From NCBI GenBank assembly GCA_031549585.1, contig JAVBPN010000019.1, positions 1 through 51,378 on the forward strand: a DNA stretch of 51,378 bases, given 5' to 3'. Position numbers and translations under genes: made by a program. This stretch comes from Bacteroidales bacterium. GTDB lineage: Bacteria; Bacteroidota; Bacteroidia; Bacteroidales; UBA4181. The notes below the pieces were generated by a model that saw only the letters and a list, made by a program, of their open reading frames with translations, was not told the DNA's origin and searched no databases. Position 1 is the first letter of the stretch. The number at the start of each line of letters is the position of its first letter. Below, piece after piece: positions 2 to 27,589 of this stretch.

Positions 2-883
2 AACACATTATATAAACAGGGTTTAGCAATCCTTACAGCGTTATTATTGATATGCGGCGTATCCACCGCCCAGAATGTCAAATTCGGAATCAAGGGAGGG
101 TTAAACCTTCCTAATATTACAGCCGGGGGCACTAACACGCCTGTAAGCGAAGGCTATAAATCGCGTTTGGCAGCAGGCGTAGGATTGTTCACCGAACTAA
201 AATTGACCCAATCATGGTCTTTCCGTTTTGGAGTGGAGTATAGCGGACAAGGAGGCCAAAAAAATGGTATGCAGGCTATGCCTACGAAACGATTGCTTAC
301 AGGAGCAGCTTCATCCATGGGTACGTCGATGACCGATGAGCAAATTGCCGAATTAACGCATTTGGCTGATGTTGTGCCTAAATATTATTATGCGAATGTG
401 GACAATACCACTAAATTCGATTATGTGATGATACCTCTTCTTGCCCAATATTCTTGGCATTTAGGACAATCTCCTTGGAGTGTTTATGTGAATGCAGGAC
501 CTTTTGTTTCATTCTTGGTATCGGGAAAGTTGGTATCAGATGGGTCAAGTTACCTGTATTCAGATGCTTCGGGACAAACGCTTTTGTGGGATACATTTTC
601 TTCAACTGATCAAGCTGATATTACAAGATTGTTCCCCGATATGGCCAGTACATTCCAAGACCCTCTTGATTTTGGAACGACAAATATTACAAGCGAAATG
701 AAATCGGCTAATTTTGGTATTATCGGAAATGTCGGATTATCTTACCAATGGGGATGTAATTTCTTTTTCATCGAAGCAGGTGGAAATTATGGGTTTGTTC
801 CTGTACAGCAAGATAGTAGTAATGGAACCAATAGGTTGGGCGCCGGATCGATTATGTTGGGATATGCCTTTTCATTTTTTTGA
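2..883 (+). CDS. outer-membrane beta-barrel protein (small porin-like/OmpA-type barrel), 5' end outside window
   Basis: The frame is open from the window edge, and the track's start at 47 is a TTG. Nt 2-70 translate to NTLYKQGLAILTALLLICGVSTA|QN, the h-region and cleavage site of a signal peptide whose Met lies upstream. Alternating Gly/aromatic strand pattern (GIKGGLNL, FRFGVEY, GIIGNVGLSYQW, FFIEAGGNYGF) and a C-terminal ...GYAFSFF fit an OM barrel. Confidence 0.6.
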   Translation, partial: NTLYKQGLAILTALLLICGVSTAQNVKFGIKGGLNLPNITAGGTNTPVSEGYKSRLAAGVGLFTELKLTQSWSFRFGVEYSGQGGQKNGMQAMPTKRLLTGAASSMGTSMTDEQIAELTHLADVVPKYYYANVDNTTKFDYVMIPLLAQYSWHLGQSPWSVYVNAGPFVSFLVSGKLVSDGSSYLYSDASGQTLLWDTFSSTDQADITRLFPDMASTFQDPLDFGTTNITSEMKSANFGIIGNVGLSYQWGCNFFFIEAGGNYGFVPVQQDSSNGTNRLGAGSIMLGYAFSFF

Positions 884-928
884 TAAACACCTATAGAGTA
901 CAAAACCTTTTTAAAAGTTAGGGAGTAA

Positions 929-968
929 TACAAAAGGCACATATAATTAATTATTTGTGCCTTTTGTA
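929..968. terminator. bidirectional stem-loop terminator between convergent genes
   Basis: A perfect 13-bp stem, tacaaaaggcaca (929-941) with tgtgccttttgta (956-968), encloses a 14-nt AT loop. The T-run sits in and after the 3' arm on both strands. It lies between the + gene ending at 883 and the - gene ending at 1141. Confidence 0.6.
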
Positions 969-1140
969 TTGTAAGTAAGAAGCCTATTTGTGTCGCATAT
1001 ATGAATGTATTGTTTTTGATGATAAACGAACCACTATGAAAAACATAGGTTTAATATTCAAAATTAAATAAACGGTGTTTCGTCCTTTTCCAAGGGATTT
1101 GTTTAGGAATGTTGTGCTACGAACGAATTTTTTTCTTCTT

Positions 1141-2154
1141 CTATCTGTTTCTTCTGTCTGTATTCTGGAATTCGTAGCGTCTCTTGTATCTGAAGAATCG
1201 TTCGCTTTGGCCAAATACAATATTTACCATCAGTTCGTGTGATCCGTATGAATATTTTCGAATATTGCCTAAAGTATAATCGAAGGCATAACCAAAATAG
1301 AATTGTTTGTAACGTGCTCCAAACAAAATACTAGTTCCTCCTGCAACGCCGCCTCCACCTGACCGATAGGACAATCCTCCCCAAAATGCATCATGGTAAT
1401 ATAAAGTAGCATTAAGGTCAATCTGTGTTGCTCCGTGTTCGTTAAATTTCAGTTGGGTGCTCGGCACTAAGCTGTAATCTTGGTTTAATTCGAAAACATA
1501 CCCTCCCAAAAGTGTATATAATCTATTAATTTGGTAATCACTACTATTGCGTCCGCCGAACATCAGAATAGATTGAAAAAGGTTGGAAATAGACAAACCT
1601 GCATAATAATCTTTGGTTGTATAATGCATCCCAAAAGCAGCGTCGGGCACAAAAGTATTCAAATCCGATGCATTAATAAAACGGTCTTCCGTTTCGGTTG
1701 TGATTTTATTCCGGTCGATCCTGAGTTGAAAAAAGCTCAGAGAAAGGCCAAAAGACAATTGTCCATAACGGTCTTCCAAGTGGTAAGCATAAGTTCCTTG
1801 CATACCTGTTGTCCGGATAGGTCCCCGGATATCATTAAACAAAGCAATGCCCAACCCTATATTTTCAGGTCCGCGTCTACCGGGACGAGATTTTCTGTTG
1901 CCAAATAATCCTTCACGAGGCACCCTCATCTGGCCAGTAAGCGTTTGGTTGCTGGGTGCATTGGCAAATCCGGTCCATTGATCTTTTATCACCAAACCGA
2001 TCGTGCTGTAATTATCAGCCCCACATGCAGCAGGATTGAGCAAAAACCGATTGAATAAATACTGGCTAAACGCTTGTGTCTGTTGTCCGTATGATTGCCG
2101 ACACAGCGCCATGAACAGGATCAGTAATAAAAATATGTATTTCTTTGTGTGCAT
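1141..2154 (-). CDS. PorP/SprF-family T9SS outer-membrane protein (partner of the adjacent type-B cargo)
   Basis: 337 aa with an ATG start and signal peptide ...RQSYG|QQTQ. N-terminal FSQYLFNRFLLNPAACG and C-terminal GSHELMVNIVF are the family signature, also seen in the two other copies in this window. It starts 6 nt after the stop of a type-B CTD gene. Confidence 0.85.
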   Translation of the reverse strand: MHTKKYIFLLLILFMALCRQSYGQQTQAFSQYLFNRFLLNPAACGADNYSTIGLVIKDQWTGFANAPSNQTLTGQMRVPREGLFGNRKSRPGRRGPENIGLGIALFNDIRGPIRTTGMQGTYAYHLEDRYGQLSFGLSLSFFQLRIDRNKITTETEDRFINASDLNTFVPDAAFGMHYTTKDYYAGLSISNLFQSILMFGGRNSSDYQINRLYTLLGGYVFELNQDYSLVPSTQLKFNEHGATQIDLNATLYYHDAFWGGLSYRSGGGGVAGGTSILFGARYKQFYFGYAFDYTLGNIRKYSYGSHELMVNIVFGQSERFFRYKRRYEFQNTDRRNR

Positions 2155-2160
2155 ATAACC

Positions 2161-3204
2161 CTACAAGATAATGGTTATGGTTCCCAATATCGGTTTACTT
2201 CCATCATTCAAATTAATGATATAATAATACGTTTCCATTGGAAGAACTCGACCTCTGCTGTCGCGTCCATCCCAAGGTTGTGGATATCCTCTGGCAGAAT
2301 TGAAAACTTTACGTCCCCATCTGTCATATACTTCGACGACCGCATTAGGGTAATCTCTAAGGACTTTGATTTCCCAAACGTCATTATCGCCGTCTCCATT
2401 TGGCGTAAAGGTATTAGGAATTCCTTTAACTATTGGATTATCTTCTGCGCAAGCTAAAATAATTATTGTATCGCTTACCGAACATCCATCAAGACTGGCT
2501 GTTACCCAATATATAGCACCACGGGTTATGTCGTGATTTGTGATATCAACATAAGGAGATGTTCCGGTTTCGCCAGTTGACCAACTGAAAGTAGTGCCTT
2601 GCGGATTCAGGTTATACCTGCTGGCATATAGCCTAAATTCAGGCACACAAATCATGGTATCTCTGCCAAGATTAATGGTTGGACGCGGTTGTGCTTTGAT
2701 TGTTACATAATTGCTTAACCGGCATCCATCCTTATCAAAAGTACGCAGTTCGTAGGTACCGGGTTTTTTGATATAGTTATTTTTAATCGACCTATCCACC
2801 CATTCATGGGCTAGGAAGTCTGATGCATTGAAAGATACTTGCACGCTATCCCCGATACACATTACATATGTGTCCTGTGTAAATTTTGCTTTTTGTCCAA
2901 CTACAGGAACATCCAAATATGCCCATTCACTGACACATTGCTCATACGGAGATTTCTCGCGTACACCTAATCTGTATGTCCCTGTGGTATTCCCCCATTG
3001 AACAATTACCTTTCCCTTAGGATCAGAGGAAATAATATTACCGCCCGATATCAAAGAATACTCAAATGTCGATGAACTCAATGTGTCGGCAGCATACAAA
3101 TGCCTGGTGCCAACACACCTCGGATCATCTTGAGCATAAATTCCCCTATTTGGCAAAAACCATAATGCCAATATAGAGATTAAGATATGGAGCTTTTTGA
3201 TCAA
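2161..3204 (-). CDS. small secreted Ig-like-repeat protein with T9SS type-B C-terminal sorting domain (gliding-motility-associated CTD)
   Basis: 347 aa. The C-terminus IPNTFTPNGDGDNDVWEI...VYDRWGRKVF...WDGRD..GRVLPMETYYYIINL matches the type-B CTD (TIGR04131-like). Signal peptide is ...NRGIYA|QDD. The start codon (3204-3202) is TTG and there is no nearby in-frame ATG. Confidence 0.85.
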   Translation of the reverse strand: MIKKLHILISILALWFLPNRGIYAQDDPRCVGTRHLYAADTLSSSTFEYSLISGGNIISSDPKGKVIVQWGNTTGTYRLGVREKSPYEQCVSEWAYLDVPVVGQKAKFTQDTYVMCIGDSVQVSFNASDFLAHEWVDRSIKNNYIKKPGTYELRTFDKDGCRLSNYVTIKAQPRPTINLGRDTMICVPEFRLYASRYNLNPQGTTFSWSTGETGTSPYVDITNHDITRGAIYWVTASLDGCSVSDTIIILACAEDNPIVKGIPNTFTPNGDGDNDVWEIKVLRDYPNAVVEVYDRWGRKVFNSARGYPQPWDGRDSRGRVLPMETYYYIINLNDGSKPILGTITIIL

Positions 3205-3242
3205 AGTGTTTTAAACTTTACTGTTACTTATTATTTCACAAC

Positions 3243-3274
3243 AAGGGATGTGCTTCGATGCGAAGCACTCCCTT
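3243..3274 (-). promoter_or_regulatory. intercistronic stem-loop between paralogue C and the type-B cargo gene
   Basis: aaggga(t)gtgcttcg-atg-cgaagcac-tccctt gives 6 + 8 bp with one bulge. It lies about 50 nt downstream of the paralogue C stop. No clean U-run follows on the minus strand, so it looks more like an attenuator or mRNA-stability element than a full terminator. A weaker second hairpin lies at 3277-3294. Confidence 0.45.
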
Positions 3275-3323
3275 TGTCGAAAATGATGTTTCGATGAAAA
3301 CAAATAATATCTATGCCAATTGA

Positions 3324-4253
3324 TTAGGGCAGGTTCTTAACATGCTCCAATTTTTGGGTTTTCGGTGTCGGCAAGAGGCTGACCAAATATCTTTCTTTCG
3401 GAATATCCTTTACTACATCTGCTATAGCACCGGGCCTGGCAGCTACCAAGGTTTGATCCAATGATTTGCGAGAAATACGGTCAGTCAAGCTGGTAATGCG
3501 TACATGGTATTCTCCTTGTGCGGCAGTGCCAAATCTTGCTGCCGGTATTACCAAATTAAATGTTCCGCCTTTACTGTTGTTGGTGGCCAAAGTTTCCGTA
3601 TATGCAACGGGCGCTCCGGCAGACCCTCCAAACGGCGTATAAGTAATGGTATATCCTACAATCCATTGACCATATCCACTTAGAGTAATAGGAATAGTCA
3701 CATTACCCATCGCGCCGGTCAAACAAGTGGCCATCACTGTATCTGCAGGCCATGCAAACGTAGGGCGATTTACAACTTGAATCTTATAAGTTGTGTCTGT
3801 TCCTGCACAACCCGGAGTCGTTGCGTTAATCATACTCCATTCATTTACCAGCAACTGTATAGTTTGCGATGTTGTTGGCATGATGGTATGAATTTCCTTC
3901 AAACCGATTGCTCCATTGGTATAATATCCAGTATGGCCTGCAATGGTAGATACCGTTGCAGCATTTGCTGTTCCATTAGCACCCGGAACATATATCGGCA
4001 ACGTAGGAGTGAATACCCATTGGAATTCAGACATAGCCATTTTACCGGCGGTAATCAGCGGAGCAATAGTAGGGTCGCCGGCTGTTCTATAGGCCATACG
4101 GCTACCCACTGTGACGGTATCAATACTTTCCCGTGTCCCAGAAGCGGAAAATTGGGTATAATCTCCCGGAAGGGATGGTTGTGCAAAAACGCCTGCTGAG
4201 CACAGCGTCATTGCCACTGCAAAAAATCCTGTTTTTAAAATATTTGTTTTCAT
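3324..4253 (-). CDS. secreted protein of unnamed family, paralogue C (no recognisable T9SS CTD)
   Basis: 309 aa with an ATG start and signal peptide ...SAGVFA|QPS. It shares DTVTVGS, FQW, the ..TPGCAG.. block and YHVRITSLTDRISRKS with the two upstream genes. Its extreme C-terminus differs (ends KNLP). Confidence 0.8.
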   Translation of the reverse strand: MKTNILKTGFFAVAMTLCSAGVFAQPSLPGDYTQFSASGTRESIDTVTVGSRMAYRTAGDPTIAPLITAGKMAMSEFQWVFTPTLPIYVPGANGTANAATVSTIAGHTGYYTNGAIGLKEIHTIMPTTSQTIQLLVNEWSMINATTPGCAGTDTTYKIQVVNRPTFAWPADTVMATCLTGAMGNVTIPITLSGYGQWIVGYTITYTPFGGSAGAPVAYTETLATNNSKGGTFNLVIPAARFGTAAQGEYHVRITSLTDRISRKSLDQTLVAARPGAIADVVKDIPKERYLVSLLPTPKTQKLEHVKNLP

Positions 4254-4286
4254 CTTATTTTGGTTTTATTTATTTCTCTTCTTAAG

Positions 4287-4321
4287 CCGCCGTCAAAATC
4301 ATACGCTTTTAACAGCGGCGG
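4287..4321 (-). promoter_or_regulatory. intercistronic GC-rich stem-loop between paralogues B and C
   Basis: ccgccg (4287-4292) pairs with cggcgg (4316-4321). Inner tcaaaa/ttttaa pairing has one G-U and a 3-nt bulge. It sits in the 88-nt B-C spacer. Confidence 0.4.
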
Positions 4322-4341
4322 ATTCGTTCATATTGAATGGA

Positions 4342-5235
4342 TTAAAAATTATTTGGCAAACGATAGATCGGGCCTGTTTCAACCGGTTTGATAATGCTAA
4401 AGGTGAACAAAGCTGATTGCCCTGTGCCCGTTGCTATATCCCCATTGACCAATACCGATGATTTACGTGAAATCCGGTCGGTAATTTGGGTAATGGTTAC
4501 CTCATATTTACCATAAGCATTAAATGCGATTGGGAATGTTCCTAATGTAGTTGACGACATGGTAAGAGCTACATTGGTCCCATTAAGTGTTGGTGCTGCA
4601 ACTCCATCCTTTGTAACTGTGTAATTTACCCATACTTTGGCATCAGGCTTTACAGCCGATGTAATAGCTACCGGAAAATTATAGGTTATAGTTGCTGTAA
4701 CTTGAGCTTGTGTTACACAAGTGTCTTTTTTGTAATCAAGAGGGCTTCCAACCTGCCTAAATGTAATAGACGGTTTTGCAATGATTTCTACCGGAATCTT
4801 TGTTTCGCTTCCGGGGCAACCGTTTGCCGGATTTTCCACCACTCTGATTGTATCTACTGCACCATAGGAATTTCCCCATGTAATGGAAATAATGGGCTGA
4901 TTGGTCGGCGTGCTTGGGGTTATACTGCCCAAAGCAGCACCTCCACTACGCCTGAAACCCCAATTGAACACTGATGTTACATTAGTGAAGTCAGTGGGAT
5001 TAGCCACATTAAATAATGGATTGGCTTCAGAACTGGGTAGTACAAAATATTTTATAACAGAACCAACTGTTACCGAGTCACGGGCTTCCTGAGGAAGATT
5101 TGGTCCACCTGTACTATTATACCCATGTTGATAATAAGTCTTGGAATCAATACTCACATTCGTAGTTTGTCCATATGCACCAACTGCTACAAAAAGCAGC
5201 AAAATGGCGGTACAATATTTTAAAATCTGTTTCAC
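4342..5235 (-). CDS. secreted protein of unnamed family, paralogue B (no recognisable T9SS CTD)
   Basis: 297 aa. The start codon (5235-5233) is GTG. Signal peptide is ...AVGAYG|QTT. It shares YYQHGYN, ARDSVTVGS, ISITWG..DTIRVVENPANGCPG, YEVTITQITDRISRKS and the terminal TGPIYRLPNNF with paralogue A. Confidence 0.8.
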   Translation of the reverse strand: MKQILKYCTAILLLFVAVGAYGQTTNVSIDSKTYYQHGYNSTGGPNLPQEARDSVTVGSVIKYFVLPSSEANPLFNVANPTDFTNVTSVFNWGFRRSGGAALGSITPSTPTNQPIISITWGNSYGAVDTIRVVENPANGCPGSETKIPVEIIAKPSITFRQVGSPLDYKKDTCVTQAQVTATITYNFPVAITSAVKPDAKVWVNYTVTKDGVAAPTLNGTNVALTMSSTTLGTFPIAFNAYGKYEVTITQITDRISRKSSVLVNGDIATGTGQSALFTFSIIKPVETGPIYRLPNNF

Positions 5236-5256
5236 TGTATTAGGTTTTAAGGTGGA

Positions 5257-6213
5257 TTAAAAATTGTTCGGTATATGATAAGTCGGGCCGGGTTTCGGTT
5301 GTGGCAATACCACATATTTAAATTCGTTTACACTAGCTGCTGTAGCTACAGTGCCTTCTATTCCGCATTTTCTTGATATGGGGTCAGTAATGGCCGTAAT
5401 TTTTATAATGTATGTACCATAATTATTAAATGTAATGGGCAACTTAGAGATATCTGCTACATTAACTTCTATAGGTGCTGATTCTGCATCACTGTCTTTT
5501 TGAATTGTATATTTTACTTTGATTCCTTTTTGTCCTGCCACTTCTGTTGTCAAAGTCAAAGGGAAATCAAATGATGGATACACATTGGAAACGCTATTCG
5601 GTAATGCCGGATTAAAAGCATAACAGTTTGAAACTTCGCGAGCGCTGTTATGTAAGCCAAATTGCACTGTCGACTTATTAATAACAGTAATCGGTATTTT
5701 TGATGCTACCCCAGGGCAAGCATTGGTAAGTGCTTGACCATTATATTCAGTAGGTGTTTCGATAATTCGTATAGTATCTGTCGATGGTTTGGCGCTTGCA
5801 GCAACCCACTTAATACTCACACGAGGCGAGGTGTTTCCATCTTTATTATTTGGATTGATGAATATGGCAGACGAGCCACTGGCTGGAACTGTCCATGTAA
5901 ACTTAGAAGTGGTTAAACTGGTTTGTGAAAAGTCGCCACCCGATGTTGATGCAATATAGGTTGCATTATATGTGGCATCGGGCATCACAAAATAAGGCAT
6001 GGTAGAACCCACCATCACCGAGTCCCGGTCTTCGCGTGGACTATCTATACTACTACCACCTTTATTATATCCGTGTTGGTATAAGAGCGTGTCGGTCACA
6101 TTAGTTCCCAGTCTCACGGAAATTGGAGGAGTCCCTTGAGCCAAAGCCTTTCCCGCACATAGCAACAACACTAATGCTATTATATTCCACTTCATGATGT
6201 ATTTCTGTACCAT
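5257..6213 (-). CDS. secreted protein of unnamed family, paralogue A (no recognisable T9SS CTD)
   Basis: 318 aa from the ATG at 6213, or 312 aa from the ATG at 6195 (MKWNIIAL...). Signal peptide is ...GKALA|QGT. Motifs are LYQHGYN, DRDSVMVGS, VSIKW..DTIRIIETP....ACPG, YIIKITAITDPISRKC and the terminal PGPTYHIPNNF. It lies 21 nt upstream of paralogue B. Confidence 0.8.
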   Translation of the reverse strand: MVQKYIMKWNIIALVLLLCAGKALAQGTPPISVRLGTNVTDTLLYQHGYNKGGSSIDSPREDRDSVMVGSTMPYFVMPDATYNATYIASTSGGDFSQTSLTTSKFTWTVPASGSSAIFINPNNKDGNTSPRVSIKWVAASAKPSTDTIRIIETPTEYNGQALTNACPGVASKIPITVINKSTVQFGLHNSAREVSNCYAFNPALPNSVSNVYPSFDFPLTLTTEVAGQKGIKVKYTIQKDSDAESAPIEVNVADISKLPITFNNYGTYIIKITAITDPISRKCGIEGTVATAASVNEFKYVVLPQPKPGPTYHIPNNF

Positions 6214-6230
6214 ATTATGTAATCTTAAAG

Positions 6231-6350
6231 ATTGTTTTATTTTTGTACTCAGTTATACGAAAAAGCAATCTTCAGGTTACAACGAAAAACAATTGTTTTA
6301 ACATAACATGCAAATAATAATAGGTTGAGTTACCTGGGTACGATTGTTTT
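6231..6350. promoter_or_regulatory. three direct copies of ATTGTTTT plus a 14-nt perfect palindrome in the operon's upstream region
   Basis: ATTGTTTT occurs at 6231-6238, 6292-6299 and 6343-6350. The middle copy is half of AAAACAATTGTTTT (6286-6299). A further direct repeat, gatttgt(t/c)c(t)aaaaaa, occurs at 6465-6480 and 6485-6499. Confidence 0.3.
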
Positions 6351-6508
6351 TCACGGCGAAGTGATTTATAAGATCTTTATTCGTAAGCTTTTATGTATAA
6401 TATCAAAATTTTACAAAAAAATCGTAACATATTGATCTTTCCAACATAAAAGGAAAAAATTCAGGATTTGTTCTAAAAAAATGAGATTTGTCCAAAAAAT
6501 AATGACAG

Positions 6509-7780
6509 TTATTTAAACCGATCACAGTGTGCCCATAAGCCTAACGCGGGATTGGACACAAAGAACACCTCTTCTCCACCAGGTAGTATATTTATTCCAT
6601 CGGTAAGTTTTTCCGGATTATATCGTTTCATCGTTTGATTTAGATCAGCATAACGAAAATATACGCTTTCAATTTCTTTTTGTGTCAGATGTCCCGGACA
6701 ATAAGTCACAGTAAAACGTCCTTCACTAGAGCCATGTATTAAATGTGCAGCAGCACTCAGGTTGTTTTTCAATTCGACCTTTTCCTTGACTGCATTAAGT
6801 ATTTTTGGCGTTCCTGCATACCCGTATTTACGGATCAGGCGGTCTATCTCTTTATCTTCTCCGAACTCTTTCAATCCGGGAGCCAGTACAATTAATTCCG
6901 CTCCGTCAGCCAAAGCCATACGTGTCCTGTAAATACTCTTATTTCCCAGCCAAGTACTTTTAAATTCACCGGGATCAAGCCAAACAACAGCTTTCTTGAT
7001 TGGCTTTTCTACCATTTGGAAATTCACCTCAAGTGACAGTTGGGAAGCCAACCGGAAACATTCAAAATCATCGCCGGCATAAAGTCCACGTATTTGCAAT
7101 TGCCCTTTTTCATCTTTTCCAACAACAGTTTGGATATACACAATGGGCAATGATTTGGTAAAACGTTCTGAAGCGTAATTCAAAATATTCCTCACAGGAG
7201 TTTCTGCCCGGCCCATAATGCGTTCCATGCCATACACCGCTCCCAAGAAGTGACTTTTGTTGATACCTTCTGCACCGCCTGTTCCAACGAAAATATTTTT
7301 GTTATAGTTTGCCATTCCGATTACTTCGTGAGGCACAACTTGTCCTACGGAAAGGATCAGGTCATATCTGCCTTCCACCAGCAATTTGTTCACTTGCGCC
7401 GGCCAGATATAATCGAGCTTTCCTTCTGACACTTGCTGTATATATTCTGAAGGAGTTGTACCAACGGTAATCACATCATTACGCCAATCGTGAATCCGGA
7501 AAAGATTTTTAGGCGTTTTCCCATACATTAGTCCGATTTCGGTTTCCGTCATTGGGGCATGTGTTCCCAAAGCAGGCAATACGTCTTTGAGTGCACTACC
7601 ATAATATTCCCAAGCTATCTCTGTAATGGGGCCTGCAAACGAATGAAACCGGGTATAATCCGGTGGAATAGCCAATACTTTTTTCCGAACTCCAAGTTTA
7701 TTGAATATTTCGGTCAATGCGCCTTTCAACTCCTCGTTGGAGAAAGCATAATTTTTCGATCCTTTTGAATAGTACAACAT
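6509..7780 (-). CDS. LarA-like (lactate racemase N-terminal domain / DUF2088) protein
   Basis: 423 aa with an ATG start and no signal peptide. Its length and blocks such as AIPPDYTRFHS, LPALGTHAPMT and GQVVPHEVIGMANYNKNIFVGTGG resemble what I recall of Bacteroidota 'lactate racemase domain-containing' proteins. This is recall-level only. Confidence 0.45.
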   Translation of the reverse strand: MLYYSKGSKNYAFSNEELKGALTEIFNKLGVRKKVLAIPPDYTRFHSFAGPITEIAWEYYGSALKDVLPALGTHAPMTETEIGLMYGKTPKNLFRIHDWRNDVITVGTTPSEYIQQVSEGKLDYIWPAQVNKLLVEGRYDLILSVGQVVPHEVIGMANYNKNIFVGTGGAEGINKSHFLGAVYGMERIMGRAETPVRNILNYASERFTKSLPIVYIQTVVGKDEKGQLQIRGLYAGDDFECFRLASQLSLEVNFQMVEKPIKKAVVWLDPGEFKSTWLGNKSIYRTRMALADGAELIVLAPGLKEFGEDKEIDRLIRKYGYAGTPKILNAVKEKVELKNNLSAAAHLIHGSSEGRFTVTYCPGHLTQKEIESVYFRYADLNQTMKRYNPEKLTDGINILPGGEEVFFVSNPALGLWAHCDRFK

Positions 7781-7842
7781 AATAGCTTGATTTTATTCAA
7801 TGTATCAATTCATACCTAATAATTTGTCACACAGACAAAATT

Positions 7843-10458
7843 TTATACCAATAATTGAAAAGCTTTTTCCATTGCTTTTCCTATTCCATCGAGATCTTTT
7901 CCTCCCGCTGTGGCAAAAAACGGTTGTCCTCCGCCGCCACCCGATATCTCTTTTGCTGCTTCGCGAACAGTATTGGACGCATTTTTCCCTTCGGCGACCA
8001 ATGCATCGCTCAATGCTATGGTTAGGCTTGGCTTATAGCCAAAATCGCTGCCAGCGATAAAAACCAGCCGTTCAAATTTGCTTTTTAGCTTAAATGCAAG
8101 ATCTTTAATCGATTCCTGTGGGAATGAGGCTTTAAACCGAATGACACTAATACCATTGATATCTTCGACATTGGCCTCCAAGCGCTTTTGAAACTCAACC
8201 AAACGTTCATTCATGATCTCCTCCAGTTCTTTCTTCAAATCGTGGTTCTCTTCTAACGATTTTTTCAAGGCCTGCAAAAATGAAGGCGAGTTGTTGAATG
8301 CCTCACGCACTTGCTGTATAATATCTTCTTGGGCATAGATCAAGGTTTCTATCGCTTCGCCTGTAACCGCTTCAATACGTCGTATGCCTGCGGCAATAGC
8401 TCCTTCGGACGCAATTTTCAATAGGCCAATTTGCCCGGTAGCTTTCACATGTGTTCCTCCACACAATTCGACGGTTTCGCCAAAGCGAATTACACGTACC
8501 CGTTCTCCATATTTTTCTCCAAAAAGCGCCATTGCTCCCATTTCACGGGCTTCATCAATTGCTATATCCCGGTATTCTGTTAATGGAGCATTGCGGCGGA
8601 TCATTTGGTTCACTTTTTTCTCCACTTGCCTGATTTCTTCATCGGTCATCTTTTGAAAATGGGCAAAATCAAAACGCAAATAGTCCGGGCATACCAACGA
8701 TCCTTTTTGTTCAACATGACTACCTAACACTTCGCGCAAAGCATAATGTAATAAATGTGTTGCAGAATGGTTGGCCTCGGTAGCGTGGCGTTTATCGATA
8801 TCTACCACAGCCAAAAAATCAGCATCCAATTGTTGTGGCAATTGGTCGACAATATGAATATTCAGATTATTTTCTTTCTTGGTATCCACCACAGCGATGC
8901 ATTCCTTATCTGATTTGATATAACCCATATCGCCCACTTGTCCACCACTCTCGGCATAAAACGGTGTGGTGTCAAACACCAACTGATACTGTTCTTTACC
9001 TTTGCTTTTAACTTTCCGGTAACGGGTGATATGTATATCGGCTTCGGTATAATCGTACCCGATAAAACGGGTTTCTTCTGCAGCCGACAATACGATCCAA
9101 TCTCCGGTATCAACGGAAGCGGCAGCTCTTGAACGGGCTTTTTGGGCTTCCATTTCTGATTCGTATTGTTTTTGGTCGTATTGTAAGTTATGTTCGCGTA
9201 AAATCAACTCGGTTAAGTCAAGCGGGAATCCATAGGTGTCATACATCTCGAACACCACTTTCCCACTAATAACCGTTTGTTGTTTACCTACGGAATCGGC
9301 AATAATATCTTCCAATAGCGATATCCCGGTAGAAAGTGTACGTAAAAACGATATTTCTTCTTCTTTGATTACCCGTTCAATCAATTGTTGCTGAGCTTTT
9401 AATTCGGGATACGAATTGCCCATCACATGCACCAAAACCGGCACCAATCTACAAAGGAACGGCTCTGTACGCCCTAAAAAAGTGTATCCGTAACGTACAG
9501 CGCGTCTCAGTAAACGGCGTATCACATATCCGGCTTTATTATTCGACGGTATTTGTCCGTCGGCTATAGAAAATGAAATAGCACGTATATGATCGGCTAT
9601 CACCCGCATGGCAATATCGCTATGTTCGTGTTCCCCATAACGGATATTGCAAAGTTGGGAGATCCCTTGAATAATTTCTTGGAAAAGGTCAATATCGTAA
9701 TTTGATGTCTTTCCTTGTACAATGCGGCATAACCGTTCGAAACCCATACCGGTATCCACATGCTTGGCTGGTAGAAATTCCAATTCCCCCGAAGCTTTGC
9801 GGTTATATTGCATAAACACCAAATTCCATATTTCGATTACTTGCGGATCATCTTGGTTTACCCGTTGCTCTCCGGGAATTTTTGCCCGTTCGGCATCCGG
9901 ACGCGAATCATAATGTACTTCTGAACAAGGTCCGCATGGCCCGGTATCGCCCATCTCCCAAAAATTATCTTTCTTAGAACCTTTCAAAATACGTTCTTCA
10001 GGCAAGTACTTTTTCCAAAAATCATATGCTTCGGTATCCATATCCAAACCATCTTCAGCGCTTCCTTCAAATATCGTTGCATAAAGGCGATTCTCGTCGA
10101 TTTTCAATGTTTTTGTAAGGTATTCCCAAGCCCAGTCGATTGCTTCTTTCTTGAAATAATCGCCAAAAGACCAATTGCCCAACATCTCAAACAAGGTATG
10201 ATGATAGGTGTCGTGTCCCACTTCTTCCAAATCGTTATGTTTTCCGCTTACACGAAGGCACTTTTGACTATCGGCAACGCGCGGATATACCACAGGGCTA
10301 TTTCCTAAAAAAATGTCTTTAAACTGGTTCAGCCCCGCATTGGTAAACATCCGCGTAGGGTCGTTTTTCACAACCATAGGCGCCGAAGGAACAATATGAT
10401 GTTGCTTAGACCTGAAAAAGTCTAGGAAAGAATTTCTTAACTCGTTGGAAGTCATCAT
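7843..10458 (-). CDS. alaS: alanine--tRNA ligase
   Basis: 871 aa. It has the class II core ([26 protein letters not shown]), the editing-domain HSATHLLH...CGGTH, and a C-terminal DHHA1-like [14 protein letters not shown]. Confidence 0.97.
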
Positions 10459-10490
10459 GAAAACTTGTCTATATAAAAGAAAAATGTGGG

Positions 10491-10498
10491 CAAAGTTA
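10491..10498 (-). promoter_or_regulatory. candidate Bacteroidota -7 box (TAACTTTG) for alaS
   Basis: Plus-strand caaagtta is TAACTTTG on the minus strand and matches TAnnTTTG. It lies 33 nt upstream of the alaS ATG. No clear -33 TTTG at canonical spacing. Confidence 0.4.
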
Positions 10499-10632
10499 AT
10501 GAAATCATTTCATTTTCTACAACTTGGTAATAGACGGTTATATCAAAATAACCGACAAATTTATGTCTATATTGAAATGTTTGTATTTGAAATTTTGTTG
10601 CAAAGTTTAATAGTAGTTATAACCACTAAGTT

Positions 10633-10683
10633 CACAAAGAACACTAAAGTATTTTGTAATCTTGTGTCCTTAGTGTTCTTGTG
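10633..10683 (-). terminator. stem-loop terminator after the GlsB-like gene
   Basis: cacaa(a)gaacactaa (10633-10647) pairs with ttagtgttcttgtg (10670-10683), giving 14 bp with one bulge. It starts 15 nt downstream of the stop at 10698. The sequence resembles 'acaaagaacac' repeat motifs recalled from Bacteroidota intergenic regions (recall-level). Confidence 0.55.
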
Positions 10684-10697
10684 GTAAATGATTTTGA

Positions 10698-10949
10698 CTA
10701 TTTGCTTTTGCTAAAAAGAGATACGATACAAAGCAAAACAACAGCGCCAACAGTAGACATGATTAAGTTACCAATAATACTGCCTTCTCTTGTAGCGATT
10801 CCCATTAAATTAAATAACCAACCACCCAAGACGCCACCAATAATCCCGACGATTATATTGATAAAAAATCCAAATCCTCTTCCTTTGGTGATTTTCCCGG
10901 CTGCAAATCCGGCAACAAGACCGATAATGATGTACCAAATAAAATTCAT
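10698..10949 (-). CDS. GlsB/YeaQ/YmgE-family stress membrane protein (transglycosylase-associated)
   Basis: 83 aa with three Gly-rich TM segments: IIIGLVAGFAAGKI, IIVGIIGGVLGGWLF, NLIMSTVGAVVLL. Confidence 0.8.
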   Translation of the reverse strand: MNFIWYIIIGLVAGFAAGKITKGRGFGFFINIIVGIIGGVLGGWLFNLMGIATREGSIIGNLIMSTVGAVVLLCIVSLFSKSK

Positions 10950-11005
10950 AATTTTAAAAATTGATTTGTAAACGTTTCAATATACGATTCATAAATAACT
11001 GAATT

Positions 11006-11413
11006 TCATTCAACACATTCTGCCCCATCCCACATCACTTTAACTGCATGGGGAGCTGATTTCCACAATCCATGTTTCGTACAATAGCTCATTGCTGTGA
11101 GATTCATAGAAACTCCGGGTGCTACTAAATGAAAGTCAACTTCGATATTTCCTGCTTGAAAAACAGATGATTCAGGGCTAAACCTTGCTTCTACCAACAA
11201 TGTTTCCCTATTCCACAATTGAATGTAGGCGATATGATGGTCTGATTCGGCTGGATGTGTATAATCCTCGCCCATCTTGACTTTTACGACAAATGGAGCT
11301 CCACGCAATACTTCCGAAGGACAAATAATATGAGGCATATGGCGGTCAAAGTAATCCTTGCGTGATTCTTTTTCCTCTTTATCTATATTTATAGCTGAAA
11401 AAACTCGCGGCAT
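11006..11413 (-). CDS. superoxide reductase (class II desulfoferrodoxin/neelaredoxin-type)
   Basis: 135 aa. Fe-ligand pattern is HMPHI, THPAESDHHIAYIQ and SYCTKHGLW (His/His/His/Cys/His). Confidence 0.8.
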   Translation of the reverse strand: MPRVFSAINIDKEEKESRKDYFDRHMPHIICPSEVLRGAPFVVKVKMGEDYTHPAESDHHIAYIQLWNRETLLVEARFSPESSVFQAGNIEVDFHLVAPGVSMNLTAMSYCTKHGLWKSAPHAVKVMWDGAECVE

Positions 11414-11502: not shown

Positions 11503-12855
11503 TTACTCCTCATCAACCCATTCGTATGGGCCTAAATCTGGTTTTTGGTCAGCAGTACGGTTATTTCCGTCCATATCTAATGGAACATTTTCAGCAATAG
11601 GAAGGCTTCCAACATCACGTGCCGGAGAATCCTTTTGCAATCGAAAATTACCTTTGGCTGAGGCTACAAAAAGCGGGTCTTTATTTGTTATTACATTGGA
11701 AAACTCTGGCGTATTTGTATTCATTGTGGTACGCAACAAGCAATAATCAAAAGAAAAAGACATAGCGTCGATGGAAATTTCATTGGCCATACTTCCGTAT
11801 ACGATACTATTCTCGAAATTGGCTGTTCCCGCTCCTTTCATCACTAAGGCAGATATAGATTTTCGCTGAATATAAGGCGAATAATTATTGGCAATCGTGC
11901 AATGAATGAATTGATGAATCCCGCCATTCAACTCTACAGTTTGGGAGGTACAATTTGCAAACAAGCAATTAGATGCACTTACATCAGTAAAAGATGTTTT
12001 CAACCCAGCATTGGCCATATTCATGATAATCACCGACTCCAACGCCAAAGCCGGAGGATTCTCTTCTTGCCCAATAAGAATGCCATTGGTTCCGTTGCGA
12101 ATTTCTGTATGTTGCAGCCGGTTATTCTGGCTTGCTGTTTCAAAAACAATGCTTCCCCATTGTCCCGGAATATTTTCAAACGCCTGTTCCAACCGATCTC
12201 CGGAAAAAATAACCGGATTATCAACATTCCCGTCAGTAATCAGCGTTCCCTTCACATAAATGTCCGCCTTATTGTGTAGATACACATGAACTCCTGCATC
12301 TATTTGCAATGTTTCTAACGTGTCAACCGTCAAACGTCCGTATACCAAATAAGGTTTCACGCCCGACCAAACTTGGCTACTAATCGTTTCATCATTCAAA
12401 ATATAAACATCTTGCCCGTACGCCTCTAAATTTACCTTTTGTACATTTGTATTGGTTTCGAAAACAATTGCATCCTGAACCAAAATAGGTAAATCATTAT
12501 TTTGTGGATCAACCGTTACTTTCACAAAAATGTACATACTGTCGTTGGCTGCAATCTCCATACCTCTTGCCTGACATGTTTCCACTCCATCAATGATTAG
12601 TTGAAAAGGGGAATGGTCGCTTCCGTTCAAAGTAACCGTTGTTGCCACAGCATCTTTATTCTTATTATATACCTTTAAAATCCTTGTAGATGAGCCAATG
12701 GTGGTAAATACGGTATCGAATCGTATCGTATCGGATGAAAAGGACAAATAATAAGAAGGATCGGTACTGATTTCATTATCACAACACGTAACTGAAACCA
12801 TAAGAAAGAAAAACAGAAGGTTCCCAAAAAATCGTTTCATTTTATTCCACATCAT
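11503..12855 (-). CDS. lipoprotein with N-terminal Ig-like domain and right-handed parallel beta-helix
   Basis: 450 aa. Lipobox-like ...LMVSVTC|C. Repeated short Asn/Cys-ladder turns (NGTNGILIG, ASNCLFANCT, HCTIANN, FENSIVYG) suggest a beta-helix. The ATG at 12855 overlaps the upstream stop (ATGA); an alternative ATG is at 12840 (MKRFF). Confidence 0.6.
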   Translation of the reverse strand: MMWNKMKRFFGNLLFFFLMVSVTCCDNEISTDPSYYLSFSSDTIRFDTVFTTIGSSTRILKVYNKNKDAVATTVTLNGSDHSPFQLIIDGVETCQARGMEIAANDSMYIFVKVTVDPQNNDLPILVQDAIVFETNTNVQKVNLEAYGQDVYILNDETISSQVWSGVKPYLVYGRLTVDTLETLQIDAGVHVYLHNKADIYVKGTLITDGNVDNPVIFSGDRLEQAFENIPGQWGSIVFETASQNNRLQHTEIRNGTNGILIGQEENPPALALESVIIMNMANAGLKTSFTDVSASNCLFANCTSQTVELNGGIHQFIHCTIANNYSPYIQRKSISALVMKGAGTANFENSIVYGSMANEISIDAMSFSFDYCLLRTTMNTNTPEFSNVITNKDPLFVASAKGNFRLQKDSPARDVGSLPIAENVPLDMDGNNRTADQKPDLGPYEWVDEE

Positions 12856-15552: not shown

Positions 15553-16470
15553 TTAAAACATTTTCCACTTGAAAAAACGAAGCCTGCTTCTCACATAGGT
15601 AGTGTTAATCGGAACGTTGTAAGAGATGAATAATTCATGAGAACCGTCATTATATCCGCTCATATCGTTAAACCCATAATCGAAGGAATATGATAGACGC
15701 AATCCCTTATATACATTGATGCCAAAAGCTATACCTGTGGTCATGGGAGATCGGTAAATTAGATTAACGGTGATATTGTTTTCATAACGGAAACCTGCAA
15801 TCAATTCATATGTGTTCATTTTTTTCGAATTGAACCAAGTGAATCCGGGAATAAAATCCCAATGGCTGTCCATTGGAATTTTAAATCTTGTATATGCAAA
15901 AATATTTCGTCCAGGGCTAAGTAAATCTTCTTTATCAGCAGATCGTGCCAAGTGAGTGACAGATCCGCCCACTTCAAAGAAACGGGTGTCAAATTCTAAT
16001 CCGAAATCAAAATCCGGCAATGTTTTTGAACTTCTGGTGTAAGTAAGCACATCGTCATCGGGGTCTTGTGGGAAGAAATCGGACTCATCATAAGTTTCTC
16101 TCAATATCCCCATACCCAATCCTAATGAAAGAAAAGCCTTTTCTTCAAAAGGGATATAATAAGCATAGTTGAGTTTGAGATTTTGGCTTTTTTGTGGCCC
16201 AAAATGGTCATTTATCCAATTGATACCGATTCCCGACCGGATTTGTCGTATAAATCCGCTGGCATTGATCACTTGCGTTGAGGGGCCGGGAAATCCAACC
16301 CATTGTTCGCGCAATCCTACAGCAGCATTAATGTCACCTCCTTTTCCGGCTACGGCAGGATTAATGATTCCCCGATTAGTCGTTTGTTGTAGGAATATAG
16401 GATCGCTTTGCGCCCAAAGCGGCACAAACAAACATAAGATGCAAAGCGTGATCCATATTTTTTTGCCCAT
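15553..16470 (-). CDS. PorP/SprF-family T9SS outer-membrane protein (partner of the HYR type-B cargo)
   Basis: 305 aa. Signal peptide is ...VPLWA|QSDP. Motifs are IFLQQTTNRGIINPAVAG and GSHELFISYNV. It lies 9 nt downstream of a type-B CTD gene. Confidence 0.85.
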   Translation of the reverse strand: MGKKIWITLCILCLFVPLWAQSDPIFLQQTTNRGIINPAVAGKGGDINAAVGLREQWVGFPGPSTQVINASGFIRQIRSGIGINWINDHFGPQKSQNLKLNYAYYIPFEEKAFLSLGLGMGILRETYDESDFFPQDPDDDVLTYTRSSKTLPDFDFGLEFDTRFFEVGGSVTHLARSADKEDLLSPGRNIFAYTRFKIPMDSHWDFIPGFTWFNSKKMNTYELIAGFRYENNITVNLIYRSPMTTGIAFGINVYKGLRLSYSFDYGFNDMSGYNDGSHELFISYNVPINTTYVRSRLRFFKWKMF

Positions 16471-16479
16471 GCTGTTTCC

Positions 16480-18780
16480 CTACAATTTTAGCGTAACTAT
16501 TCCTTTGTCCGTACGGGTACCACTAATCGTTGGCCGTTTGACAATATATAAATATGTCCCTTGCGGAAGGACTTTCCCTTTATAGGTGCCGTCCCAGCCT
16601 GCTTTCCCCTGATAGAGCACAGTTCCGGTACGATTGAAAACCGTTAGGTCATGTCCGGGCAAGAACAATTCATTCTTTCCGTCCCTATTGGGTGTGAATA
16701 CGTTTGGCAGCTTTTCCCCGGTAATTTCCAATACCAATTGGTCTTGAGATACGCAATTGTTGACACTGGTGGCAAAAACTTGTACTTTATATTTTCCCTG
16801 CAATTCTGCATAGAATCCGATTTTATTATCCATACCTGATTCCCGGACCACTTTGTCGTTTAATAAAAACTTGTAGCTGGGGAATCCGGCAGTTGCCGAA
16901 ACGACTACTTCACTGTTTTCATAGATTTCATCGATATTTCCGCCGTCATATCTCAACTTTACAGGCTCAGCTTCCCGTACGGTGATATTTATGCTTTTGG
17001 TTTCGCTTGAAGTACCATCGCTTACTGTTAATGTATATGTGGAGCTCACCAACGGGTAGTCTTCCATAACTCTTATGGAAGATACAATCGGGCTAGTCCA
17101 TGAATACACGTATCTGGATGTAATGCCGCTTCCTCCCGATACAACTGGCGTAATGGTCACCCGTTCGTTCGGGCATATTTCATAAGACGACACCCTGAAG
17201 CCAATGTTGATCGGTTTCCACGGATGTTGTACGGTGACTTTAAATTCACATATAACAGTATTTCCTGATGCATCTTTTATTGTATGGCGCACTACAGATA
17301 CTCCAAGAGGAAACGAAGATCCACTGGCAAAGTTAGGATCGTTGATGGTAATAGTTGTTCCGGGGCAGTTATCGGTAAAAGAGATTGAATAATTAACGAT
17401 AACTGAACTGTTGTCTTCATCTATAATGATTATTGTATCATTGGGGCATGTTACAACAGGAAATTCTTGGTCAATAACAGTTACAGTTTGCGATGCGCTT
17501 TCGCGAAGCCCTCCTTGATCCTGTACGATCCAGTCAACAAGGGTATGGCCTAACGGATAAATAGCCAGTGCATTGTTGGTAACAATCAATTGATTGATTG
17601 GAGTACAATCATCTGAAACAGTAGGTGTTCCCAAATTAACATTGGTCGCCACACAAACACCTGCATCTGTAGGTACGATCACTTCTTTGGGAGCGATAAT
17701 TGTCGGACGTTCATTATTTAGTATATGTACGGATGCCGATTTAGGGCGACTTTCACAAACATCTTGATATTCGACGGTTACATAATAATTAACACCTGCA
17801 TTAAGTGTCCCTGTGTGAAAAACGATTCCGGTTCCAAGTAAAGTTGTCTTATTTTCGTCGTTGTACCATCTGAACAATGGGTTATTAATACTTGGAGCCA
17901 AAGCGTATAACGTGGTTGAAGTACCTGCACAAATTGATGCGCCGTCTCCCACTATTTCAATGACATCAGGAGATGCGGCTTGTTGAATAGTCACGGTAAT
18001 CTGTGTCTTTTCACTTTCGCACTCATTGGTAATTGTTTGGGTGACATAAAATACTTGCGTTCCAAGAGTTGTTGTTGAAACGGTTGGCGGAACAGTTGAA
18101 GTGGTGTTATTGTAATACCATTTAAGATTTACCCCGGTAGCCGACAATGTAATAGGAACACTGTATTGGCACACCTCTATGTTCGGATTGGATACGGTTG
18201 GCGGCGGTGATTTGGGGATAATAATGATGTCAAATTGTTGGCGGTGGCTTTCGCAACTCACTGATGAGGTATATGCAACGGTTTGGGTCGCCCAATAGGA
18301 TGTTGTTCCGGTAATAGAGGAATTAATGACTGGTGGAGTGGTAGAGCCAACTCCTCCCGTAGGAACATCATACCATTTGGCCGGGTTGGTTCCATAGATG
18401 GATAAAGAAACCGTTGATCCCTGACAATAACCATTTACAGCATAATTGACAGTTGGATTAACCGGTAGGGGATATACGGTAAGATAATTTTCTCTATGCG
18501 CTGATTGTGCACCATTGTATACCGTAAGGGTCAATACTTTATTGTTGTCCCCTGTGCTTGCTGTATAGGCTAAAGTTGGTGCCGTTCCGATTACTGTACT
18601 TCCTAATTTCCATTCGTATGATGTCACCGTTCCGGAAACATCAGCTGTCATGTTAAGGTCAGCGCCATCACAAACATCGGGAACATTGAAGCTATTAATT
18701 ACCGGAGCCTGTGCCGATACTAAAAAGGTAAAGGCGCAAAATCCGAAAAATAACATTAACTTCCTGACCGTATGAATCAT
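16480..18780 (-). CDS. large adhesin-like protein: Ig-like (CHU_C-associated type) repeats + two HYR domains + T9SS type-B CTD
   Basis: The track start at 18801 is TTG. The ATG at 18780 gives MIHTVRKLMLFFGFCAFTFLVSA|QAP (766 aa). There are four C-x-G...W(Y)...C-E-S Ig-like repeats and two HYR-like units (PTIIAPKEV..DAGVC...TVSDDC and FPVVTCPNDT...FTDNCPG...FKVTV). The C-terminus is LPNVFTPNRDGKNELF...GWDGTYKGKVLPQGTYLYIV. Confidence 0.85.
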   Translation of the reverse strand: MIHTVRKLMLFFGFCAFTFLVSAQAPVINSFNVPDVCDGADLNMTADVSGTVTSYEWKLGSTVIGTAPTLAYTASTGDNNKVLTLTVYNGAQSAHRENYLTVYPLPVNPTVNYAVNGYCQGSTVSLSIYGTNPAKWYDVPTGGVGSTTPPVINSSITGTTSYWATQTVAYTSSVSCESHRQQFDIIIIPKSPPPTVSNPNIEVCQYSVPITLSATGVNLKWYYNNTTSTVPPTVSTTTLGTQVFYVTQTITNECESEKTQITVTIQQAASPDVIEIVGDGASICAGTSTTLYALAPSINNPLFRWYNDENKTTLLGTGIVFHTGTLNAGVNYYVTVEYQDVCESRPKSASVHILNNERPTIIAPKEVIVPTDAGVCVATNVNLGTPTVSDDCTPINQLIVTNNALAIYPLGHTLVDWIVQDQGGLRESASQTVTVIDQEFPVVTCPNDTIIIIDEDNSSVIVNYSISFTDNCPGTTITINDPNFASGSSFPLGVSVVRHTIKDASGNTVICEFKVTVQHPWKPINIGFRVSSYEICPNERVTITPVVSGGSGITSRYVYSWTSPIVSSIRVMEDYPLVSSTYTLTVSDGTSSETKSINITVREAEPVKLRYDGGNIDEIYENSEVVVSATAGFPSYKFLLNDKVVRESGMDNKIGFYAELQGKYKVQVFATSVNNCVSQDQLVLEITGEKLPNVFTPNRDGKNELFLPGHDLTVFNRTGTVLYQGKAGWDGTYKGKVLPQGTYLYIVKRPTISGTRTDKGIVTLKL

Positions 18781-19003
18781 TATGTTTACAATTGACACCA
18801 ATATGTTGTGATTATGTTATACGTAAAATACATATTTATTGTTTCATTTTTCATGTATTTTTCTGATATATATTTTTTTTGTAAAATATGATAAAAAATA
18901 CAATTTATTGAAAATTAAAAAAGTATAATGATTTTTAAGGCTTGCACGGATTTTATTTGTTGGAATTCAAGTTGTGCTGGATATCTATATTACTTTTTGC
19001 CTT

Positions 19004-27515: not shown

Positions 27516-27589
27516 TTTACCGATACAGTCATTATATAGCCTGTGTACAATCATTCTTGATACATTATAAATGCCTTTTGGCTGGGCTT

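Follow-up and report, generated by a model that had tools for sequence, protein, structure and literature searches.

A candidate type IX secretion surface-appendage module of short-tagged proteins, a type-B cargo and a PorP carrier in a Bacteroidales bacterium

In a 51,378-nucleotide stretch of DNA from a Bacteroidales bacterium (contig JAVBPN010000019.1 of assembly GCA_031549585.1; the whole stretch is called the window below), we analyzed five genes at 1141-6213 that encode three related secreted proteins, here named A, B and C, a cargo protein with a C-terminal domain (CTD) of type B that belongs to the type IX system for secretion (T9SS), and an outer-membrane carrier of the PorP/SprF family. 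The reading we favor, with a probability of about one half, is that these genes form a self-contained T9SS type-B surface-appendage module, in which tagged subunits dock on an anchor made of cargo and PorP and so form an appendage on the cell surface. A-C are Sec-exported proteins of two β-sandwich domains that lack a CTD and end in a short conserved tag. The cargo/carrier pair is of a known kind; the new elements are a so far uncharacterized protein family and a C-terminal tag that is a candidate signal for docking or sorting.

The list of open reading frames (ORFs) agrees exactly with the initial annotation of five genes that run in the same direction on the minus strand, with 21, 88, 119 and 6 nt between them. 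Paralogue A (5257-6213, an ORF of 318 aa) consists of a signal peptide, a head Ig-like domain, a second β-sandwich domain with the motif ITDPISRK and the C-terminal tag; it is followed by B (4342-5235, 297 aa, GTG start) and by C (3324-4253, 309 aa), the last family gene, which lies directly upstream of the cargo gene (2161-3204, 347 aa, TTG start). The carrier gene (1141-2154, 337 aa) starts 6 nt after the cargo stop. These last two proteins had been read as a type-B cargo and a PorP/SprF carrier, and the expected matches to TIGR04131 and TIGR03519 were obtained: the cargo matched CHU_C (PF13585; 5e-23, 81.4 bits against a cut-off of 27, at about residues 261-344) and TIGR04131 (2e-18, 66.3 bits, cut-off 35), and the carrier matched PF11751 (1.5e-65, 221.9 bits, cut-off 22.3) and TIGR03519 (3.2e-70, 236.9 bits, cut-off 90.55) over its full length. 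The signal peptides of A-C end just before a glutamine (..ALA/QG, ..AYG/QT and ..VFA/QP, cleavage at the slash), as had been noted, and this Gln is conserved in 96% of 160 family members, with no conserved lipobox Cys in their signal region. Such ends agree with the 'Q-rule' that reportedly holds for signal-peptidase-I substrates of Bacteroidota. The N-terminus of the cargo (MIKKLHILISILALWFLPNRGIYA/QDD) fits a Sec signal peptide by eye, and its Q25 is invariant in 13 orthologues. The true start of A may be Met7 (MKWNII.., position 6195) and not MVQKYIM.. six codons earlier, because the N-termini of orthologues begin at an equivalent MK..; A would then have 312 aa.

A and B are 32% identical over their full length (BLASTP, E=1e-39), and C is a distant but significant relative of both (B-C, 4e-9; A-C, 2e-6); on these comparisons the three are real paralogues, far past chance. 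Among the sequence blocks that had been assigned to all three proteins, DSV.VGS..Y, F.W, C.G and G.Y.V.IT.[IL]TD.ISRK do occur in A, B and C, whereas YQHGYN and DTIR are confined to A and B. The terminal GP.Y..PNNF is common to A and B as described, and the tail of C (..KLEHVKNLP) is different but related. As the initial annotation had stated, A-C cannot be assigned to a named family: they had no match in Pfam, NCBIfam or the PDB sequences, and 68 diverse family members had none in Pfam. Furthermore, at E≤1 A-C matched neither the type-B CTD models (CHU_C/TIGR04131) nor the type-A CTD models (TIGR04183/PF18962, Por_Secre_tail), and the latter were also without a match in the 68 members. Exhaustive HMMER searches gave a family of 560 representative clusters at E≤1e-3, 429 at ≤1e-10 and 168 at ≤1e-30, nearly all matches being 260-350 aa long and aligned end to end; word-indexed protein searches grossly undercounted, with 16 and 9 matches for the family and 2 for the cargo passenger. 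All named sources are metagenomes or metagenome-assembled genomes of uncultured 'Bacteroidales bacterium' or 'Bacteroidota bacterium'. Across the 160 members, which have a mean identity of ~25%, Q26 (the first mature residue), D64, V66, Y74 and W107 are near-invariant, C166 is conserved in 100%, C197 in 98%, and D277, K282 (in ITDRISRK) and N316 in 98-100%. The AF2 model of A (pLDDT 80.8, pTM 0.71) is all-β: it has two sandwich domains, and its C-terminal tail is well ordered.

The association of this family with type-B CTD and PorP genes in other genomes, which had been set in advance as a check on the initial annotation, was present in every informative locus. Neighborhoods were collected by exact-protein look-ups, a scan of species-representative genomes and a metagenome scan with an 18-sequence alignment, and the genes of each locus were classed with our own hidden Markov models for the family, the cargo passenger, the CTD and PorP. 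Family genes lay directly beside an orthologous cargo gene (E down to 1e-144) in 23 of 23 independent loci with enough downstream DNA, and in these loci a PorP orthologue (E down to 1e-170) followed the cargo wherever the contig continued. The genes flanking the modules differed from locus to locus, and the module is thus a discrete unit. It also follows a rule of composition: one or two genes of an A/B class, with tails of the form ..TGPIY[HR][IVL]PNN[FY], then exactly one gene of a C class, with the tail ..[KP]LQH[IV][KR]N[LM], and then the cargo. Two-gene modules hold one gene of each class, and the position of the C-class gene is kept in all loci, including one in which the gene order is permuted (L007: PorP, family, family, cargo). 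In 7 three-gene modules an A orthologue stands where A does, and B orthologues stand second in orthologous modules. The three paralogues are not equivalent; they represent two ancient classes in a fixed order, A and B belonging to the first and C to the second, and the conservation of this order across genomes shows that they are ancient, orthologous and non-redundant. The window also provides an internal control for the specificity of the pairing, since it contains a second type-B pair without family or tagged genes: a 773-aa cargo (Ig_7, HYR and CHU_C; 16480-18801, minus strand) and a 305-aa PorP/SprF protein (15553-16470, minus strand), the latter 30% identical to the module PorP. A PorZ homologue (PorZ_N_b_propeller, 4.6e-31; 25260-27554, minus strand) and a 734-aa GLUG-motif protein with a type-A CTD (Por_Secre_tail; 22775-24979, plus strand) indicate that the genome has a T9SS, complete with its attachment-complex branch.

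The cargo itself consists of a head domain (~2875-3123, residues 28-110), a stalk of two Cys-rich domains (~2434-2874) and the type-B CTD (~2164-2433, residues 258-347). The resemblance first proposed between the N-terminal domain of the cargo and the first domain of A-C was borne out by profile comparison (hhalign 98%, E=1.8e-13; 3.5e-11 with larger alignments), and whole-profile alignment of the family with the cargo gave this head-domain match only, alternative alignments included. In another genome (GCA_023429135.1), family and cargo are joined in a single 504-aa protein (P0135/P0165): a family body at residues 1-271 is followed by a region homologous to residues 145-346 of the window cargo (E=3e-39), ending in CHU_C at residues 418-500. 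The D/K motif of the family is kept in this fusion and the C-terminal tail is gone; a PorP gene follows directly, and no free family genes lie nearby. From this architecture it follows that in that organism the family body is a covalent T9SS passenger, and a Rosetta-stone argument would have A-C function jointly with the stalk and CTD of the cargo.

The passenger of the cargo is related to a much larger protein. GhpA, of the Aureispira grappling hook (PDB 9flp), is a T9SS substrate whose hollow stalk is a bundle of seven parallel strands of Ig-like domains (Lien et al., bioRxiv 10.1101/2024.01.29.577165). A profile of cargo orthologues matched GhpA (9flp_A, 5,898 aa) with E=8.7e-132 and 26 domain matches (best i-E=1e-12); profile positions 25-243 aligned to ~12 successive GhpA stem units of ~240 aa, and the CTD aligned to the GhpA C-terminus. 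A single-sequence search gave no match. Judged by these alignments, the cargo passenger is one repeat unit, a head plus two stalk Ig-like domains, of a stem of the type found in GhpA and the adhesin SprB. The family profile, searched against the PDB at E≤10, gave only weak matches to POM152 and filamin Ig domains and none to GhpA, and the relation of A-C to GhpA is transitive only, by way of the cargo head.

The C-terminal tail of A-C, which had been read as one more block of the family, is instead a portable tag that also ends unrelated bodies. It is ~10-14 residues long, of the form P-x-[PTE]-T-G-P-[IV]-Y-[HR]-x-P-N-x0-3, with a class 2 form ..LQH[IV][KR]N... On the minus strand of the window, class 1 tags end A (PKPGPTYHIPNNF, 5260-5301) and B (PVETGPIYRLPNNF, 4345-4386), and the family alignment and tag survey place a class 2 tag at the end of C (PTPKTQKLEHVKNLP, 3327-3371). 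In the tag of A, H313 is conserved in 86% and N316 in 99% of the 160 members, and pLDDT in the model is 81-94; N316 sits 0-5 residues from the C-terminus, mostly within H-[IV]-x-N. Seven sister loci have, immediately upstream of the family genes, a gene for a large, unrelated protein without a CTD that ends in the same tail (for example ..TPVTGPVYREPNN, ..IETGPIYRLPNRIEN, ..ASGIIYRIPNQ and ..NTGNIYRVPNL), and the B tag is the window variant nearest to those of the giant GhpA-like proteins and the phosphatase among them. Three of these tagged proteins are PKD_6-repeat giants (L014, >2,649 aa; L015, 2,256 aa; L022), the first of which matched GhpA at 1.7e-293; others are an Ig_7 protein (L023) and a purple-acid-phosphatase/calcineurin-like metallophosphoesterase of at least 629 aa (L026, 2-1891, plus strand), whose N-terminus is cut by the contig end, whose C-terminus reads ..NTGNIYRVPNL and whose gene lies directly upstream of the family genes. 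Thus, the tag is not limited to adhesin-like proteins. Neither CHU_C nor Por_Secre_tail was found in the giants, the Ig_7 protein or the phosphatase.

Among 1,527 stop-terminated ORFs from the window and all non-redundant loci, the tag occurred on 65, every one of them inside a module and none on a flanking gene. The strict motif stood at the C-terminus in 50 of 52 occurrences, which argues that the tag is not simply the end of each Ig repeat. The L014 giant (2-7951, plus strand) carries, besides its terminal tag, one internal copy near residue 1982, which may be the trace of two fused tagged genes. The L015 locus has two tandem cargo paralogues (8800-11063, plus strand; 353 and 358 aa, each having the head domain and CHU_C), the order there being tagged giant, two family genes and then the two cargos, and its contig ends before any PorP. 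The tag matched neither the type-A (TIGR04183/PF18962) nor the type-B (TIGR04131/PF13585) CTD model, and its core, [IVL]-P-N-x-[FY], is similar to the motif (motif A) with which the type-B CTD begins (IPNTFTPNGDGDND).

These properties suggest, at somewhat worse than even odds, that the tag is a hitherto unrecognized T9SS-linked sorting or docking signal that would let CTD-less proteins, such as A-C, GhpA/SprB-like giants and enzymes, be both exported and displayed through docking on a CTD-bearing adaptor cargo and PorP, as a 'split' type-B substrate. They could also be explained by a tag that acts on its own, as a minimal T9SS-related sorting signal read by PorP or the translocon, so that A-C would be exported singly and held by PorP, and the cargo would be a fourth substrate and not an adaptor. 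The portability of the tag over unrelated passengers, including an enzyme, favors such a signal, as does the fact that its best match within the cargo falls on the first CTD motif; no protein of the module is better conserved than PorP, and in Flavobacterium johnsoniae one carrier can serve several substrates. However, a stand-alone signal leaves unexplained why every module has a full-CTD cargo with the same head domain, all five CTD motifs were required in the one system tested, and the fusion protein exchanges the tag for the cargo stalk plus CTD, not for the CTD alone. We consider a self-sufficient tag unlikely.

We compared the divergence of the module proteins in seven orthologous modules. 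Mean identity was 74% for PorP and 76% for the cargo CTD but 50% for the cargo passenger, and A (47%), B (52%) and C (48%) diverge at the pace of this surface passenger (47-52% versus 50%), not that of the CTD and PorP (74-76%). The last 60 residues of A-C (53-62%) are better conserved than their bodies. These rates bear on the main rival explanation, in which A-C stay in the periplasm as accessory or chaperone-like factors, or as a base that binds the cargo or the periplasmic face of PorP in the manner of PorE, and aid assembly, regulation or stability of the cargo. A periplasmic role would fit the lack of a CTD of any known type in A-C and the lack of a PorE-like gene in the module, which leaves the slot of such a partner conceptually open; moreover, sprCDBF encodes the CTD-less proteins SprC and SprD along with SprB, and SprC travels along the gliding track. 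It fits poorly with bodies that evolve as fast as an exposed passenger, with the family body being a T9SS passenger in the fusion protein, and with the same tag ending GhpA-like adhesin-type proteins of >2,600 aa and a phosphatase, which are typical secreted or surface passengers; A-C also lack an OmpA or peptidoglycan-binding domain. On balance we regard a periplasmic location of A-C as improbable. That A-C are instead functionless, decaying duplicates of the cargo that have lost its CTD, or unrelated secreted neighbors of a type-B pair, is very improbable indeed: the head domain in common with the cargo would permit an origin by cargo duplication, but ~560 representative clusters of full-length proteins with C166, C197, D277, K282 and N316 conserved at 98-100%, and orthologous A, B and C in fixed order in many genomes with different flanks, already contradict decay or chance.

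Three other readings of the family were considered and set aside. Type V (FimA/Mfa) pilins or chaperone-usher-like subunits found no support, as A-C have no lipobox, and no fimbrillin match in Pfam, and their top Foldseek matches include no pilin. The near-invariant D277, K282 and N316 had prompted the idea of an isopeptide 'latch', a Lys-Asn bond locking the tail; it was dropped because the tag Asn is also present on giants and an enzyme without DRISRK, the fusion has the D/K motif and no tag, and no CnaB or pilin family or fold was found. Finally, domain 2 was considered as a cryptic type-B CTD, for which restricted hhalign paired ITDRISRKS with VYDRWGRKVF (P=0.003), and was rejected with the whole-profile alignment, which yielded the head-domain match only; the pairing is kept as a lead.

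The carrier provides the anchor in the favored reading. According to published work, type-B substrates require dedicated PorP/SprF carriers, to which they remain attached: the carrier pulls the cargo from the SprA translocon and holds its CTD, and thus anchors the cargo on the cell surface. In SprF, an invariant Cys-x-Cys in the periplasmic C-tail is disulfide-linked to GldK, resulting in track-driven movement (Liu et al. 2025, PMC12635249), whereas static type-B anchors have a PorE-like partner in their operon. None of 19 module PorPs has a Cys-x-Cys in the last 45 residues, and 18 of the 19 have no Cys there at all. No PorE-like (OmpA_C) gene lies beside the modules of the window, L001, L003, L005, L007 and L019, whose flanks are unrelated (OMP_b-brl_2, 4HBT, aldo-keto reductase, ADI and nitroreductase). 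Because the carrier lacks Cys-x-Cys and the module lacks a PorE gene, its anchor is probably neither track-driven like SprB nor pinned to peptidoglycan like PG1035 or Fjoh_3952. The module PorPs do share a conserved, strongly basic periplasmic C-tail, ERFFRYKRRYEFQ (..FGQSERFFRYKRRYEFQ..; window 1141-1240, minus strand), which the second PorP of the window does not have and which could be a contact site for a periplasmic partner.

Two spacers of the module contain hairpins. A strong one lies between C and the cargo (CGACAAAGGGAGTGCTTCG-CAT-CGAAGCACATCCCTTGTTG; 3239-3279, minus strand), with a conserved TTATTTGTTTT motif ahead of it at 3293-3311; hairpins stand at this place in L001, L005, L010, L011, L013 and L017 too, their stems differ in sequence, and compensatory changes are seen in 5 of 11 pairs. 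The other lies between B and C (CCGCCGCTGTTAAAA...TTTTGACGGCGG; 4286-4319, minus strand), with equivalents in L001, L005, L011 and L013. The C-cargo hairpin is not followed by a U-run, no intrinsic terminator was found in the module spacers, and scans for sigma-70 promoters and terminators and for TAnnTTTG were neither enriched nor informative. The hairpins could be internal promoter or 5'-UTR elements, or elements of mRNA processing or stability that set subunit ratios. A sequence similar to the TTATTTGTTTT motif ('tattattatttg') is present upstream of A near 6315, and the compact loci L012 and L014 have neither the spacer hairpins nor the motif. Elsewhere in the window, a desulfoferrodoxin/superoxide-reductase-type gene (11006-11413, minus strand) agrees with an anaerobic lifestyle, and its neighbor, a 450-aa ORF (11503-12855), begins with a signal-peptide-like stretch and had no match in Pfam.

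In the assembly that we envisage, the tag would dock the CTD-less subunits, one or two of the A/B class and one of the C class, on the cargo-PorP complex, either in the periplasm with subsequent co-export or by filling a site on the carrier that resembles the one for CTD motif A. The cargo, with its CTD, would be the anchor or adaptor strand in a surface stalk that is short and heteromeric, and the stalk would resemble the seven GhpA strands bundled side by side on a PorP-type base. Our guess, by analogy with the GhpA and SprB relatives, is that such a stalk would serve adhesion or contact with a surface or host.

Several points weigh against this assembly. Binding of A-C to the cargo or PorP, and their presence at the surface, is what we infer from sequence, although the inference is strengthened by the fusion protein, the portable tag and the homology to GhpA. 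Published mutagenesis found all five type-B CTD motifs to be needed for secretion through the SprB CTD, which makes a ~10-residue tag unlikely as a canonical signal, and a literature search for piggy-back export through the T9SS found no precedent. The tag bears a weak likeness to CTD motif A: the match ranks first of ~340 cargo positions, but 29% of shuffled profiles score equally, and the restricted hhalign comparison of the family tail with the CTD start (P ~0.009) is a lead only. Foldseek with the A model against the PDB returned generic tandem-Ig matches only, with TM ≤0.29. Lastly, a single operon is deduced from gene spacing alone, and the conserved hairpins could mark separate transcripts.

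By the accepted rule, a T9SS substrate requires a folded C-terminal domain and every type-B substrate remains bound to its own PorP-like carrier; the module suggests a further layer of strictly co-inherited CTD-less proteins with a short portable tag. Should this tag dock on a CTD-bearing adaptor, the T9SS secretome and surface proteome would exceed what CTD searches predict, the handling of giant CTD-less SprB/GhpA-like proteins in these bacteria would be accounted for, and the five genes would offer a compact, genetically tractable model for the assembly of Ig-strand appendages, grappling hooks among them, on PorP bases. The analysis in any case delimits an uncharacterized family of ~560 clusters and supplies a regular expression with which more clients can be found.

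Among the nearest known systems is the grappling hook. In Aureispira, ghpA is followed by ghpB, encoding a PorP homologue, and ghpC, encoding a PorE homologue, and the authors note the likeness of GhpA to SprB (Lien et al., bioRxiv 10.1101/2024.01.29.577165). In both that cluster and the module, a gene for a T9SS substrate that has Cys-containing Ig-like domains and a CTD at its C-terminus precedes one for a PorP homologue. However, GhpA has 5,898 aa whereas the module cargo, with a single repeat unit, has 347 aa, the ghp cluster has a PorE gene that the module lacks, and the GhpA stalk is built from seven identical CTD-bearing protomers, whereas in the module the additional strands would be separate CTD-less tagged proteins, A-C, of a distinct family. 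The sprC-sprD-sprB-sprF operon of F. johnsoniae (Rhodes et al. 2011, as cited in PMC12635249), to which the initial annotation had likened the module, holds as a loose analogue: it too combines a type-B adhesin, a dedicated PorP-family carrier that anchors it and CTD-less accessory proteins encoded upstream. The analogy fails in that SprB is a giant and the module cargo tiny, and in that SprF has the Cys-x-Cys linked to GldK, which no module PorP has; the GhpA stem is the closer solved relative of the cargo passenger. PorP-PorE-PG1035 of P. gingivalis and Fjoh_3950-3952 resemble the module in that a PorP-like carrier keeps a type-B CTD protein of small or medium size at the surface, but they have a PorE-like peptidoglycan-binding partner and no tagged paralogues, whereas the module has no PorE-like gene and two or three tagged family proteins. 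As for the tag, it stands, like the type-A and type-B CTD signals, at the very C-terminus of proteins that are exported by Sec and have diverse passengers, and it is strictly associated with T9SS carrier genes; the CTDs, however, are folded domains of 70-100 residues, and the tag has ~10-14.

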